Source: Cinqassovirus ah1 (lineage: Duplodnaviria > Heunggongvirae > Uroviricota > Caudoviricetes > Straboviridae). Taken from it: a stretch of DNA of 64,000 nucleotides. Positions 11,844-53,313 of the stretch are shown here, piece by piece. Numbering within the stretch: the stretch's first letter is position 1; every line of letters starts with the position of its first letter. The stretch spans positions 12,650 to 76,649 of IMG/VR virus record IMGVR_UViG_2974724611_000001. One strand, given 5' to 3'. The position numbers were made by a program, and so were the translations under genes. Below the pieces are notes generated by a model, which was not told the origin of the DNA, ran no database searches, and saw only the letters and a list, made by a program, of their open reading frames with translations.

Positions 11844-12239
11844 TCATAACCTAATTATGGCACACTTTATTTGAATAGTAAACAAAAGCCACCCGAAGGT
11901 GGCTATATTTATTAAAACATCTTCGCTATTTGTTGGATCGAGATATGGAACACCAGCTTCAATTTTTAACACATACGTGATATTTGTTGCTGTATCCAGA
12001 ATTTCATCCTGCTTAATTGCTTCTTCAACGAGTTTATCACCGACAACAACGCGACGCTTGCCGTCATTCGTTGCTGGTTTAGCGAGAGCTCCTACCATAT
12101 CGGCAGTATAGTCGCCAGCTTGCGGAAGAACGTTACCGTTTCTGTTATTGAACGACGAAACGTTAGCAGGCTTAGTACCCTCTGCCAAAATACCAGCAAC
12201 TCGTGGGTGTAAATTTTTGGATTTTAAACTGAGTGCCAA
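11844..12239 (-). CDS. Hypothetical protein (TTG start; 3' end reads through a terminator hairpin)
   Basis: 131-aa ORF with no in-frame ATG. The coding sequence runs through the GCCACC-UUCG-GGUGGC hairpin at 11884-11903. Confidence 0.3.
   Translation of the reverse strand: MALSLKSKNLHPRVAGILAEGTKPANVSSFNNRNGNVLPQAGDYTADMVGALAKPATNDGKRRVVVGDKLVEEAIKQDEILDTATNITYVLKIEAGVPYLDPTNSEDVLINIATFGWLLFTIQIKCAIIRL
11884..11903 (-). terminator. UUCG-tetraloop hairpin terminator (identical stem to 11246-11261)
   Basis: aaaagccacccgaaggtggc followed by a T-rich tract on the minus strand. Confidence 0.45.
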
Positions 12240-12344
12240 CAGGAATACCAGTAGCAGCGTTCAGAGGAATCCATGCTTTACCAACAATCACGTTTGGGAT
12301 TGTCTGCCATTTTAAATCTCCTATGTTTTATGTTATTTAACAAA

Positions 12345-12374
12345 ACAAAAAGGGAGCCGAAGCTCCCTTTTTGT
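12345..12374 (-). terminator. Bidirectional rho-independent terminator
   Basis: AAAAAGGGAGC-CGAA-GCTCCCTTTTT, with A/T runs on both sides. Confidence 0.55.
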
Positions 12375-23582: not shown

Positions 23583-24482
23583 CTATAGCATACCGCATTT
23601 TGAGGACTGGTATCGTCTTTGATGCCAATTAGTTTTCGCGATTTTCATCACATTTTCGATTACTTTCAGCCAATGACGAGCCAGCTCCAAACGCGCCTCA
23701 TAGTATGAGGTATCATACTTCATCAAACCGTGAGCTTCGTCCTTAAACTGTTTGATTGCTTGATCTCGCTTGTGATCTTCGATTGTGTAGTGTTTTGCGC
23801 GAGGATCCGGCATGAAGTTCTTAACTTCATCATTATCAAGCATGATGATGTAACCTTTCCAACCACTCCAATATTTGTAGTCTTGAAGCAAGTATTCATC
23901 GTTCAACTTTACTTTGATCATTTCACACAGACCTTCCTTGAGATGGTCGCGAGTGATTTTACCAGAGATTACATCGCGCAAAATTTCGCGAGATTCTTCC
24001 CAGTCTTGGCGATTATATACATAATGACGAACCAAATCGTTCATTTTATCCTGACGTTCAATAGCATCACAATATTCGGATTGAAGTTTAAGAATGTAGC
24101 GCAGCCAGTGACGAGCCAGTTCCAGGCGAGCTTCCCAGTATCCGTCGTTACCAACTTCGTCTTCTTCGTGATATTGTCTGATTGCCTCTTTCAGAGGATC
24201 TTCCATTTCATCCGGATTGCCAATGATAATACAGTGACCTTCCCAACCACTAAAGAATTTATAATCGTCCAGTGTACCAAGACTACACAAATCGATGCCA
24301 CCTGCTCGGGAGCCAGTTACATAACAGAGACCGATTTTACACTCTTCACGGGTAATGCTACCGTCGATTACGGCTTGCAGTTTTGATTTTGTTACGTCGA
24401 AACGTGCTTTGTTCTTGACGTAGTGTTTAACAGCTTCGGAAACCATCGGGTCGTTGATGATGCGAGTTTGCAGTTCGTTCAT
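23583..24482 (-). CDS. Hypothetical protein with an internal tandem duplication
   Basis: 299 aa. Two ~140-aa repeats each end in YWEARLELARHWL / YYEARLELARHWL. Confidence 0.55.
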   Translation of the reverse strand: MNELQTRIINDPMVSEAVKHYVKNKARFDVTKSKLQAVIDGSITREECKIGLCYVTGSRAGGIDLCSLGTLDDYKFFSGWEGHCIIIGNPDEMEDPLKEAIRQYHEEDEVGNDGYWEARLELARHWLRYILKLQSEYCDAIERQDKMNDLVRHYVYNRQDWEESREILRDVISGKITRDHLKEGLCEMIKVKLNDEYLLQDYKYWSGWKGYIIMLDNDEVKNFMPDPRAKHYTIEDHKRDQAIKQFKDEAHGLMKYDTSYYEARLELARHWLKVIENVMKIAKTNWHQRRYQSSKCGML

Positions 24483-31497: not shown

Positions 31498-31524
31498 AAA
31501 GAAAAGAGGCTTTCGCCCTCTCTT
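31498..31524 (-). terminator. Hairpin terminator, GAAA tetraloop
   Basis: AGAGGGC-GAAA-GCCUCUUUUC. Confidence 0.5.
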
Positions 31525-36603: not shown

Positions 36604-36816
36604 TCACAAATGTATTCTGAATCTTTGGCGATTACTTCGCCGTTCTACTTCGAGTTTGCCGTTGGTAGCACTCATTGGGACTTCCAGCTTTTCTTTCAGA
36701 TACGCTTTAAGTTGTTCCAGTATATCTGAACTCAAACTGTTGTCAACTGATTTTTCCACAATTTTTATGCTCTTTACATTGCGTTGTTGTGTAGCCGTCA
36801 AACACAGAACGAGCAC
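36604..36816 (-). CDS. Hypothetical protein (probably shorter, GTG start near 36765)
   Basis: The track ORF overlaps the HAD gene 3' end by 74 nt. An internal GTG start would reduce the overlap to about 17 nt. Confidence 0.3.
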   Translation of the reverse strand: MLVLCLTATQQRNVKSIKIVEKSVDNSLSSDILEQLKAYLKEKLEVPMSATNGKLEVERRSNRQRFRIHL

Positions 36817-37233
36817 GATAATAGTCCTTAGCTGTGAATCCGTTCACACTATCAACGTGAATGAAATTTTGCTTTTGTGACTCCAACATGTCGTCGTCAT
36901 CGTCAACAATCACATAATTCTCACATTCTTGATGTTTGTTCAGCCACTCTTGAATCAACTCTCCGCGATTTTCACCAACAAGATCTCTTGTTTTGAAATC
37001 CTCATGTAAGCATTCGGGAGGGAATCCTGCCATAGCAAGTTGATCCTTCACCATCTGCAAATCACATCCAAGTCTCCAAGTGCTACTGTATACCACTTTC
37101 AAACCGTAGTCAACGATTAGTTGGATAAAAGCTTTACAGCTCCTATGTCTACCATTTGTCCGTATTTCAAGTAACTGCTATCGCTATGAAATACTCCGTC
37201 AACATCGAGAAACAATACACGGCATTTTTTCAT
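36743..37233 (-). pseudogene. HAD-superfamily phosphatase disrupted by a -1 frameshift
   Basis: Frame A, 37233-37117: MKKCRVLFLDVDGVFHSDSSYLKYGQMVDIGAVKLLSN, stop. This carries HAD motif I (DxDG). Frame B, 37177-36743, continues ...CKAFIQLIVDYGLKVVYSSTWRLG...YVIVDDDDDM (motifs II-IV). The frame-A ATG overlaps the upstream TGA as ATGA. Confidence 0.55.
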
Positions 37234-39192: not shown

Positions 39193-39391
39193 AAATGTCA
39201 AACAGTGATGCAAGTCCTGGATGCTGTGGGAACTTCACATGTTTGGTGTTTTTGTCAATTGCCAATCCGGTTTGTTTAACAAACGCATCGAACTTTTCTT
39301 TAGAAGCAAAACGAACTTTGATCGTCCGTTTGCCACTCTTCATTTTCTCGATTACGTGTTCCGGTGCGGCATCTGGGTTAACATATGCCAT
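39191..39391 (-). CDS. Hypothetical protein
   Basis: 66-aa ORF. Confidence 0.45.
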   Translation of the reverse strand: MAYVNPDAAPEHVIEKMKSGKRTIKVRFASKEKFDAFVKQTGLAIDKNTKHVKFPQHPGLASLFDI

Positions 39392-40590
39392 TATTCTTCC
39401 TCGTCGTTAGCGTCTTGTTCGGACGCTTTGATAGATGTTAGCACCATTCCGTATTCATTGCAACCTTCCGGAATAACATTTTTCAGTTTCAGACGATTAG
39501 AACGATACGGTGCATAGTCTACCCAGTGGTGCCAGCGACCGTTCATCCACTGCAATCTGGCAACGTCTGGATGCATGTCCACAATCATTTGCGACTTAGG
39601 CAGAGTACCTTCTTTTGAATAGAAAGCTTCTGTGTTACCGCCTGCCATCGCTTGAGTAACGAGTTTACCAGTCAAGAAAGCGTTATATTGAATCGTGCAA
39701 TGACCGTCTTTCAAAACACGCAGGCTCAAATCGGTATCTTCGTTATAGCGACCTCTCCAACGATACGGGATATCATTGAGAATCAACAGAGTGCTATAAA
39801 TCCGACAGTTTTGAACGAACGGAGGCAACGACTCTTTCGGCACAGCAAAGAAGCGATAATGCGGACCAGCGATATAGACGTTTTCATAACGATCAACGTG
39901 ATCTTCCATAGCACGGAAGATCGCGCCACTGTTAACGATTGTGCGCTTGTTTCCGTCAAGACGGAAGAAGTGTTGTTGGTTATCGTCCATTACCCAGTGA
40001 CGCTTGAACCCCATTTTCATAGAGTGTTCCCAAGCAAAGTTACGAGCAGCGCCTGGACCCTTGCTTCGAGTGTTACCGAGATTATCAAATGTATCATATT
40101 CGTCAAGATATTTCTGATCAAGAATGATAACGGTCACATATTCATGATCAACGCGGCTGTTATATTCTTCGAATTGAGATTCTTCTACAACGATATAATG
40201 CTTGACTTTCATACGCACCAAACTATCGGAAGTCAATCGCTTTTCCCATCGGGATTTTGATACGATGTAAATCGGATATTTTGGCTGATTCAAATCGGTG
40301 TAATCAGATACATACCGAATCACGGAGTAATCGTCTGGACCTTTCTTCGGCCACCAAATGCTCTTTGTCTTGTCACTTAACGGCAAGTCTGCGAGCTTAG
40401 AAAACTCGGCAACATCATCGTTATTATCGAACTCGAATTCAATCTCGGCATAAGCGTCGATGATATCTTTCGGCTCATAGTGTGGCATTTGCTGCCAGTG
40501 GTCCCATGGATTATCTTCGTTGGCATATCGCTCATTGCGATAAATCAAATTGCCATCTAAGTCTCTTGTTTTTTCTACTTGTTTGCGCAT
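39391..40590 (-). CDS. Hypothetical protein, possibly a nucleotide-sugar (GT-A-like) transferase
   Basis: 399 aa with a DxD-like motif (VMDDN). The assignment is weak. Confidence 0.35.
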   Translation of the reverse strand: MRKQVEKTRDLDGNLIYRNERYANEDNPWDHWQQMPHYEPKDIIDAYAEIEFEFDNNDDVAEFSKLADLPLSDKTKSIWWPKKGPDDYSVIRYVSDYTDLNQPKYPIYIVSKSRWEKRLTSDSLVRMKVKHYIVVEESQFEEYNSRVDHEYVTVIILDQKYLDEYDTFDNLGNTRSKGPGAARNFAWEHSMKMGFKRHWVMDDNQQHFFRLDGNKRTIVNSGAIFRAMEDHVDRYENVYIAGPHYRFFAVPKESLPPFVQNCRIYSTLLILNDIPYRWRGRYNEDTDLSLRVLKDGHCTIQYNAFLTGKLVTQAMAGGNTEAFYSKEGTLPKSQMIVDMHPDVARLQWMNGRWHHWVDYAPYRSNRLKLKNVIPEGCNEYGMVLTSIKASEQDANDEEE

Positions 40591-47521: not shown

Positions 47522-47881
47522 TTACGCAGTAACGAAATCGGCGATGATACGCGGATTAGCAATGTGACCGCTCAGTTTCCAGATAGAAACGGTTTCTGTA
47601 GGATTCTTGATCTTGTGCTCACGCGCTACTTCCATAGCCTGCTTGTCGGTCATCGGACTCATAAACACGCTTTGACCGTCGGCTTTGGTGATCTGAACAA
47701 TAGAAGTCAGTTTACCTTGTTTGACACCAACACCAATATCACTCATGATTTGTTTGGCTTCGGTATCGCTAATCTCGTCCAGAGACTTGACACTCAGATA
47801 AACACGCTTGCCATCAATGCGCAGAACACCGGAACAAACACCATCACGCCAGGTATAGTCTTCCATCTTGCAACAGCGCAT
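47522..47881 (-). CDS. Hypothetical protein (start uncertain)
   Basis: 119-aa ORF. An upstream 32-codon ORF with a strong GAGGTG SD (ATG at 47942) overlaps it in the +1 frame. Confidence 0.4.
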   Translation of the reverse strand: MRCCKMEDYTWRDGVCSGVLRIDGKRVYLSVKSLDEISDTEAKQIMSDIGVGVKQGKLTSIVQITKADGQSVFMSPMTDKQAMEVAREHKIKNPTETVSIWKLSGHIANPRIIADFVTA

Positions 47882-48102
47882 GATGTTTAGATTTTACGTT
47901 GTTAACACGTACCATACCACGATAAGAAGTTTTTACAGTCATTTTTCACCTCAGATAAATTTAAATGTTTTGAATTCTTCTTGACTCAGTTGCACTACCA
48001 TATCTTTTTCGATACAGAGATTTGAATACAGGTCCAGTTTATCAGCTTTCACCAGTATGTCAATGATTTTATCGAACTTTTCTTTTGCCAAACGAATAGT
48101 CA

Positions 48103-52385: not shown

Positions 52386-52408
52386 ATAAAAATCCCGACG
52401 AAGCGGGA

Positions 52409-52630
52409 TCAGTCTTTCTTGGATGCCAACATTGCTGCCATCAGCATGTCGTGGCGTTTTTGTTCTTCTTTCTCTTTGCGTAGATTCGGCAGAATCAGTA
52501 ACAGAATGATAGAGAAAAGAGGAGTCAGAAAAATGGTGATGATTAACCAACCCAGAACAGAACGCCAGCGAGAGTTTGCCAATACCAAAGTTACGATCAG
52601 AAATACAAGCCAGCCAATTGCGATTGTCAT
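52409..52630 (-). CDS. Small membrane protein
   Basis: 73 aa with two TM helices. Confidence 0.45.
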   Translation of the reverse strand: MTIAIGWLVFLIVTLVLANSRWRSVLGWLIITIFLTPLFSIILLLILPNLRKEKEEQKRHDMLMAAMLASKKD

Positions 52631-53082
52631 TTAAACACCGTTATGATAGTTGATAACGTATTCTTTCAGCTCTTGATAAAAAGCCTGATACTCGATAGCG
52701 CGAATAATGTCCTTCGGACCAACACCCTTCAAACGTCTTATATCGCTATTGTGTCGGAGATCGCTCATTTTGATGTAGACAGAACGAATGTCGGACTTGA
52801 CTCGTTGCTTGTAAGAATCCATACTTTCGCCCTTGATCTTACTCACATTTTGAACAAGTTGAACGGCTTCTAGCTCATGCCGTTAGAGATCAAGAGATCT
52901 CGTCCACCTTCGATATCTTCAATGATATCATGAGCCAACGCTGCCTGTTTAGTAGCTTCGTCAGCACACTCCGGAAGACCCTCCATAACCGCCAAGCAGT
53001 GTTCGAAATAGGGACGTCCACCTTTGTCGTTAGTTTCCGAGAAAGCAGTTGCTACCAGTGCGTACAGTTTAGCTAAAGTCAT
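52631..53082 (-). pseudogene. Small alarmone hydrolase (RelA/SpoT-type HD-domain (p)ppGpp hydrolase) split by a -1 frameshift
   Basis: ORF 53082-52870 carries the HD half: GGRPYFEHCLAVMEG...AALAHDIIEDIEGG, then a stop. ORF 52846-52631 (reading frame open from 52882) continues ...ELEAVQLVQNVSKIK...YIKMSDLRHNSDIRRL, the KLADRLHNMRT-like motif. Confidence 0.55.
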
Positions 53083-53313
53083 GTTCCTTCTCCAGTTCGT
53101 TTAACTCTTGAGTTAACATCTTATCACGGTTTGCGTGATATTCAACTTTTTTCTTTGAATGTTCAATTTCTCGGACTAAATGTTTCCTAGTATTGCTTGA
53201 ACTCGCCGTTTACAACTTCACCCATTTGACACGCAAAACCGTACATCATATATTCCTCAGTTGATTTGAAAGTGCGATCTATAATGATCGCACCGATTTG
53301 GATTACAAGCTTT

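Follow-up and report, generated by a model that had tools for sequence, protein, structure and literature searches.

Organization of the hydrolase locus

The DNA analysed here, referred to as the window, is a stretch of 64,000 nucleotides that was found by megablast of the region to be 100% identical, on the same strand, to positions 12650-76649 of the Aeromonas phage Ah1 genome (MG250483.1 / NC_055733.1), classified in Straboviridae, Cinqassovirus. On the minus strand, it carries two adjacent reading frames that RefSeq presents as separate coding sequences, KNT77_gp107 and KNT77_gp106, each named 'metal-dependent phosphohydrolase'. The 5' fragment (52870-53082, KNT77_gp107, 70 aa) holds D19, H28, H51-D52 and E55-D56, and its translation ends in ...DLLISNGMS* (also given as ...HDIIEDIEGGRDLLISNGMS*) at a premature TAG at 52870-52872. 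The 3' part (52631-52882) lies in the -1 frame, which is open from 52882 to 52631, encodes ...LEAVQLVQNVSKIKGES...MSDLRHNSDIRRL... and contributes R94, D108, N112, D114, R117 and Y132. Homology in this part extends from the CTA codon at 52873-52871 (L71) through the stop codon TAA (52631-52633), and KNT77_gp106 covers just 52631-52822. A first-pass annotation of this DNA had assigned RelA/SpoT HD-domain N-terminal motifs to the ORF at 53082-52870 and the C-terminal half to the frame at 52882-52631, and both assignments hold: the coordinates of the former are correct and it matches Pfam HD_4 (E 6e-6), and the latter is borne out by its match to PHROG 990, by the D108/N112 motifs and by the alignment with relatives. 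Read from the sequence, one 150-aa HD-domain gene is divided between this ORF and the frame that ends at 52631. A promoter scan of the coding strand upstream of this gene found no sigma-70-like site.

The gene is present as one intact syntenic ORF of 453 nt in the phages avDM12-TAAL (hereafter avDM12), Aeh1 (Aeh1p116) and PX29 (gp108). A fourth intact relative is a Logan contig of 38.6 kb (run SRR9330608), which is 98-99% identical to the window and represents a different, closely related phage, Ah1 itself not being its source. A protein search showed that this contig carries P0001, an intact protein of 150 aa that shares 99% identity with the repaired protein of Ah1, from which it differs at three amino acids. 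With the missing base restored, the Ah1 protein is 98% identical to that of avDM12, 86% to that of Aeh1 and 85% to that of PX29, and the hydrolase is encoded in a single frame in all four relatives. Matches at the DNA level were limited to 13 phage records, and related genes were detected by tblastn (E <= 1e-8) in 231 phage records, mainly from large lytic myoviruses of Aeromonas, Klebsiella, Cronobacter and other hosts, together with streptococcal temperate phages. On this similarity, the hydrolase gene is conserved in T4-like Aeromonas phages and in many other large lytic phages.

Downstream of the hydrolase lies a 73-aa hydrophobic ORF (KNT77_gp105, 52409-52630, minus strand), whose ATG abuts the hydrolase stop codon (TAAATG); a terminator-like hairpin (52391-52410) comes after this ORF. 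The pairing of the hydrolase with this ORF is found in Ah1, avDM12, Aeh1 and PX29, and the 73-aa ORF had no match in Pfam. The SRR9330608 contig diverges directly past the hydrolase stop and has a 160-aa ORF in place of the 73-aa one.

Directly upstream of the hydrolase, a deletion scar left by the loss of about 1 kb occupies 53072-53248 on the minus strand. It consists of the first ~22 codons of a gene for a UvsE-like UV-damage endonuclease (53246-53181) and, from an 89-aa ORF, of its last 39 codons (53188-53072), the two remnants being mutually out of frame. Both genes are intact in avDM12 and Aeh1, where the 89-aa ORF overlaps the start of the hydrolase, and both are cleanly absent from PX29. 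The SRR9330608 contig bears an identical scar (L017:9771-10000), and since it is common to this contig and Ah1, the upstream deletion is real, unlike the single-nucleotide lesions described below. Genuine gene loss does therefore occur near the hydrolase gene. Elsewhere in the window, frame-scrambled remnants at ~12150-12345 mark a large Ah1 deletion, from which three big ORFs that are present in avDM12 (L008:16227-22597) and in Aeh1 (Aeh1p027-029, ~8.5 kb) are missing.

Protein family and predicted substrate

The similarity to HD hydrolases on which the initial description of the gene depended is present in profile searches. The joined protein scores 32.8 bits against Pfam HD_4 (PF13328), above the curated gathering threshold of 27.2, and the N-terminal fragment alone scores 26.5 bits (E 6e-6), slightly under that threshold. 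The intact homologue P0001 has a precomputed Pfam HD_4 match, and PHROG 990 'metal-dependent phosphohydrolase' is matched by either half alone (E 3e-17 and 5e-20). The similarity of both halves to hydrolase families is thus far beyond chance. The HD motifs H...HD...ED...D...N are complete (H28, H51-D52, E55-D56, D108 and N112), and these residues are invariant or near-invariant across 120 homologues.

Among solved structures, the best relative identified by phmmer is 7SMG, the adenosine 3'-pyrophosphohydrolase Aph1 (E 4.1e-13, 31% identity), well ahead of SpoT, Rel and Mesh1. The match spans query residues 5-147 on residues 10-149 of chain 7smg_A, so that the homology of the repaired protein covers the C-terminal ~53 residues by which the Aph1 family is defined. 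The AlphaFold model of P0001, which stands for the repaired Ah1 protein at 99% identity, has a pLDDT of 92.4, and its top four PDB matches are all 7SMG chains (TM 0.78-0.85, rmsd 2.2-2.7 A), followed by Mesh1 and RelH. It was previously established that the Aph1 signature comprises D24, R96, D116, R119, K133 and Y134, and that a D24R/R119A double mutant of Aph1 gains ppGpp hydrolysis (Ahmad et al. 2023, PMC10083569). The corresponding residues of the phage protein are D19, R94, D114, R117, E131 and Y132; five of the six residues are kept, K133 being replaced by E131, and both specificity determinants (D24/R119, here D19/R117) are among those retained. Across the 120 homologues, the D24, D116, R119 and Y134 columns are invariant, and the K133 column is K or R in 106 of them. 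Additionally, the guanine-stacking pair R43-R44 of TtRel is not present, the aligned positions being D19-K20, which compare with D24-K25 of Aph1.

By these similarities, the gene belongs to the Aph1-like small alarmone hydrolases, a family already known. Since Aph1 is the closest relative and five of the six signature residues, including both specificity determinants, are conserved, the predicted substrate is likely (p)ppApp more than ppGpp. The gene had been described initially as a ppGpp-type small alarmone hydrolase: the RelA/SpoT-type HD hydrolase part of that description stands, and the ppGpp part probably does not, because the closest characterized enzyme is the (p)ppApp-specific Aph1.

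On one side of the frameshift lie the metal ligands H28, H51 and D52, and on the other lie D108 and the substrate residues N112, D114, R117 and Y132. Because metal ligands and substrate-contacting residues are divided between the pieces, neither predicted fragment could be active alone. That the pieces nevertheless function as two small proteins in their own right, or come together again as a split enzyme, might be read from the two coding sequences in RefSeq, both carrying the phosphohydrolase name; this reading is, however, extremely unlikely, as the break divides the catalytic residues in the manner just described, falls between two helices inside what the P0001 model predicts to be one compact domain, and is found in none of the relatives. 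Furthermore, inspection of the sequence by eye revealed neither a ribosome-binding site nor a conserved start for the second piece.

A single missing base in the hydrolase gene

A DNA alignment with three relatives showed that the Ah1 hydrolase gene has one base missing and no other indel in 477 columns. The missing base lies at 52872-52874 on the minus strand (about 52873), where one C is absent from a GCC triplet: Ah1 reads ATGAG-CTAGAA, whereas the relatives read ATGAG[C/T]CTAGAA, and in the four-way DNA alignment the position is read as ATGAGCCTAGAA in avDM12, ATGAGTCTCGAA in Aeh1 and ATGAGTCTTGAC in PX29. In the closest relatives, a CC doublet occupies the site, within a GCC context. The change of frame is equivalent to a deletion of one nucleotide (-1), in agreement with the -1 shift that had been placed between 52885 and 52870. 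The alignment with intact phage homologues, proposed at the outset as a check, thus shows a single gap and an ORF that is whole in all four relatives. The SRR9330608 contig, which is 98-99% identical to the window and shares the upstream scar, also reads ATGAGCCTAGAA, and on this comparison the immediate ancestor had GCC, where the Ah1 record has GC. Downstream of the lesion, the frame remains open for 80 codons, and comparison with the intact relatives (protein 98-99% identical) revealed neither a second lesion nor excess amino-acid changes.

Programmed recoding, through -1 ribosomal frameshifting or transcriptional slippage from one frame to the other, is favoured by the fact that the frames overlap by a few codons only and that their joining would restore a perfect homologue. 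However, a slippery heptamer of the type X XXY YYZ and a homopolymer run were sought at 52870-52885 (AAC GGC ATG AGC TAG), and both were absent; the relatives all encode the protein in a single frame, and similar splits are scattered in unrelated genes, so that recoding has next to no probability here. The original observation that the site offers no obvious slippery sequence or homopolymer is therefore right for the heptamer and only loosely true for the homopolymer, as a short C run (GCC) exists at the site.

Single-base deletions elsewhere in the Ah1 record

Frame-split genes were searched for by tblastn with the avDM12 and Aeh1 ORFs against the Ah1 window, and reciprocal scans were also performed. 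Three genes of the 64-kb window are frame-split in Ah1 and intact in both avDM12 and Aeh1, and the reciprocal scans of avDM12 and Aeh1 found no genuine splits. Besides the hydrolase, a HAD_SAK_2 phosphatase-like gene (36746-37233, minus strand; 163 aa in relatives; PF18143, E 8.5e-23) is broken by a TTT to TT deletion at ~37122, which confirms that the HAD gene is split by a one-nucleotide deletion in the same direction, as had been reported. The third is a conserved gene encoding 140 aa in relatives (47525-47942, minus strand) with two one-nucleotide deletions eight bases apart, GCC to GC at 47870 and GGC to GC at 47878, both bases being retained in avDM12, Aeh1 and the SRR9330608 contig. In three-way alignments, all in-window coding lesions (37122, 47870, 47878 and 52872) are single-base deletions in runs of 2-3 nt. 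At 31507, a perfect hairpin, GAGGGC-TTTC-GCCCTC, that is conserved in avDM12 and Aeh1 has lost one G/C of its left arm in Ah1; this is a non-coding case of the same error type, in a terminator hairpin. The in-window splits all fall in small accessory genes (3/3), an outcome with a chance of about one in three by a rough estimate from annotated gene lengths, and with three events the accessory-only pattern is not informative and is overtaken by the essential genes that are split outside the window.

Other differences were recorded in the window. An 11-nt deletion relative to both avDM12 and Aeh1 lies at ~36643, just downstream of the HAD gene and in or beside a tiny ORF, and differences of 1-2 bases from avDM12 and Aeh1 near gene ends, at 23637, 35716 and 35963, give gp044 another C-terminus (900 vs 855 nt) and change gp072 at either end; these may be errors or real variation. 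Relative to Ah1, the SRR9330608 contig has a +1/-1 pair of indels in A runs, separated by 54 nt, at L017:19905 and 19958 (window 41781 and 41727, in gp082). Comparisons of Ah1 with avDM12 gave no indel there, avDM12 appearing to match Ah1, and the pair represents a compensated frameshift or, alternatively, a contig error.

The pattern extends beyond the window in the Ah1 record. In the Ah1 annotation itself, gp23 (major head protein; 23_1/23_2), gp54, gp8 and wac are split, and gp12 bears the label 12_1. In gp23, Ah1 reads GAAG-CAAC against GAAGCCAAC in avDM12 and Aeh1, a GCC to GC change as in the hydrolase, in a region where avDM12 is 99.4% identical to Ah1 over 1.8 kb. A comparison of 164 kb of Ah1 with avDM12 gave at least 14 annotated avDM12 genes that isolated one-nucleotide indels, nearly all of them deletions, split or truncate in Ah1, and no annotated Ah1 gene that is split in avDM12. 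The broken genes include virion structural genes, namely gp23 (lesion at record position 146706), gp8 (122576), gp54 (108441/108446), gp48 (110949), the baseplate hub (112739), gp12 (127349), wac (131044) and gp13 (135108), as well as alt (160188), two small genes and the three in the window; further lesion sites lie at 153427 and 133470 of the record. The lesions outside the window are mostly in GCC/GGC or ACC contexts. The two deletions in gp54 are five bases apart, and such clustering, also seen in the 47870/47878 pair, suggests locally poor sequence. In a previous study, Nikulin and Zimin left Ah1 out of a Tevenvirinae core-genome analysis on account of a reading-frame shift in its gp40 gene (PMC8056088).

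The indel calls rest on the tblastn frame-switch scans and on a filter for clean, isolated one-nucleotide indels. A raw blastn indel list against avDM12 and Aeh1 was discarded as too noisy, since diverged stretches give compensating gaps, and many candidates from the ORF scan were dropped because, according to the annotated CDS tables, they were shadow ORFs or N-terminal ORF extensions. Among deletions in CC/GG runs, 8/10 fall in GCC/GGC against an expected 26% (binomial p = 6e-4), a post hoc figure, the pattern having been seen before the test. Clean one-nucleotide indels between Ah1 and avDM12 comprise 31 deletions and 23 insertions overall, and the deletion bias is therefore confined to gene-breaking events and G/C doublets. 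KNT77_gp080 (window 39391-40590) is a homologue of beta-glucosyl-HMC alpha-glucosyltransferase and, because this homologue is encoded, Ah1 cytosines are probably hypermodified. Speculatively, the C/G-doublet error bias may be linked to cytosine modification or to the sequencing platform; the literature was searched for the accession MG250483 without a match, and the platform was not found.

Origin of the frameshift and possible role of the enzyme

The lesions in virion genes must be errors in the record, because no T4-like phage that forms plaques could do without its major capsid protein and half of its baseplate. The frameshift in the hydrolase gene is, very probably, likewise a single-base sequencing or assembly error in the Ah1 record, judging by analogy with those other lesions, and the gene a conserved Aph1-family hydrolase. 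The hydrolase lesion is regarded as an artefact because the same type of lesion, in the same context, breaks gp23 and other essential virion genes of a viable phage, because it is absent in a 98-99% identical phage, and because no decay accompanies it.

The main competing explanation is a genuine, very recent pseudogene, in which the Ah1 lineage lost one C and with it the hydrolase as part of an erosion of the accessory region. In both Ah1 and the SRR9330608 phage, the loss of the UvsE-like gene and of half the ORF beside it is real, and the hydrolase is an accessory gene, absent or diverged in many relatives and with DNA-level matches in so few records. Nevertheless, this explanation is improbable, since the same lesion type and context occur in gp23 and several essential virion genes, which is impossible in a propagated phage, since there is no second lesion and no surplus of amino-acid changes, and since the closest relative with the same scar has an intact gene. 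The more specific proposal that the missing C is real, and that Ah1 just inactivated an Aph1-like hydrolase shortly after the loss of the UvsE-like gene, is highly improbable. If it were true, Ah1 would form a natural pair with its intact and nearly identical relatives (the SRR9330608 phage and avDM12), with which the need of a lytic T4-like phage for this enzyme against alarmone-based (toxSAS/FaRel/Tas1-type) immunity could be tested in Aeromonas. Systematic deletion errors in the assembly and ongoing decay of accessory genes had both been offered at first to explain the disruptions; the former is favoured over the latter, with gp23 and at least six other virion genes split in a phage isolated as viable.

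Under the preferred explanation, that of an error in the record, the deposited Ah1 genome would contain an under-call of one base, among many in short G/C runs (mostly GCC/GGC), and the real phage gene would most likely be intact, reading ...NGMSLEAVQ.... By homology, the intact enzyme would bind a divalent metal through H28, H51-D52 and D108, and would presumably take the 3'-pyrophosphate off (p)ppApp. Its most plausible role may be to cancel alarmone-based growth arrest during infection, whether caused by toxSAS-type defence or toxins or by stress signalling. The anti-toxSAS role is favoured because stand-alone phage small alarmone hydrolases, such as those of Salmonella phage PVP-SE1 (PbcSpo) and of SSU5 (PaSpo), were shown to neutralise toxSAS toxins (Jimmy et al. 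2020, PMC7229694).

These findings indicate that the Ah1 reference (MG250483 / NC_055733) contains many gene-splitting single-base deletions, one of them in the major capsid gene, and that apparent pseudogenes and frameshifts in this record should be taken neither as biology nor as a basis for annotation until the genome is re-sequenced. The analysis also assigns to a clade of strictly lytic T4-like Aeromonas phages a hydrolase of the Aph1 type that is probably (p)ppApp-specific, and the spread of related genes over 231 records supports the idea that alarmone hydrolases are common in phages, which extends known work and adds no new kind of system. The gene family was already known, and the -1 disruption that had been flagged is best explained as systematic sequencing or assembly error.

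Comparison with known systems

The closest known system is Aph1 of Bacteroides caccae (adenosine 3'-pyrophosphohydrolase 1, 7SMG), which resembles the phage protein in its length of ~145-150 aa and single HD domain, in a sequence match over the full length, in a predicted fold that superposes (TM 0.80-0.85, rmsd 2.2 A), and in the conservation of the equivalents of D24, R96, D116, R119 and Y134. It differs in that K133 is E131 in the phage protein, and in that the phage gene lies among early accessory genes of a strictly lytic T4-like phage, with neither a (p)ppApp synthetase toxin nor a MuF gene next to it; additionally, the ORF is interrupted in the Ah1 record, and the phage protein is a predicted hydrolase. 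PbcSpo and PaSpo are similar at the level of the HD_4 class, being small phage-encoded hydrolases without a partner toxin. Neutralisation of toxSAS belongs to these enzymes, which are the sole precedent for a counter-defence role, and it would apply to the Aeromonas phage protein by analogy. The Mesh1, RelH and SpoT-type enzymes (3NQW, 7QOD and 6S2T) share the HD fold and the catalytic H...HD...ED...D...N motifs, but their matches are weaker, with a TM of 0.55-0.63 on the target and 19-25% identity, and Rel further differs in its guanine-stacking arginines (R43/R44 in TtRel), at which the phage protein has D19-K20, as Aph1 does.

Regarding the lesion itself, the Ah1 record resembles other deposited phage genomes with indel errors, in which isolated one-nucleotide deletions in short runs are absent in close relatives and affect essential genes. 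On the other hand, the bias of Ah1 is towards GCC/GGC doublets rather than long homopolymers, which is unusual.
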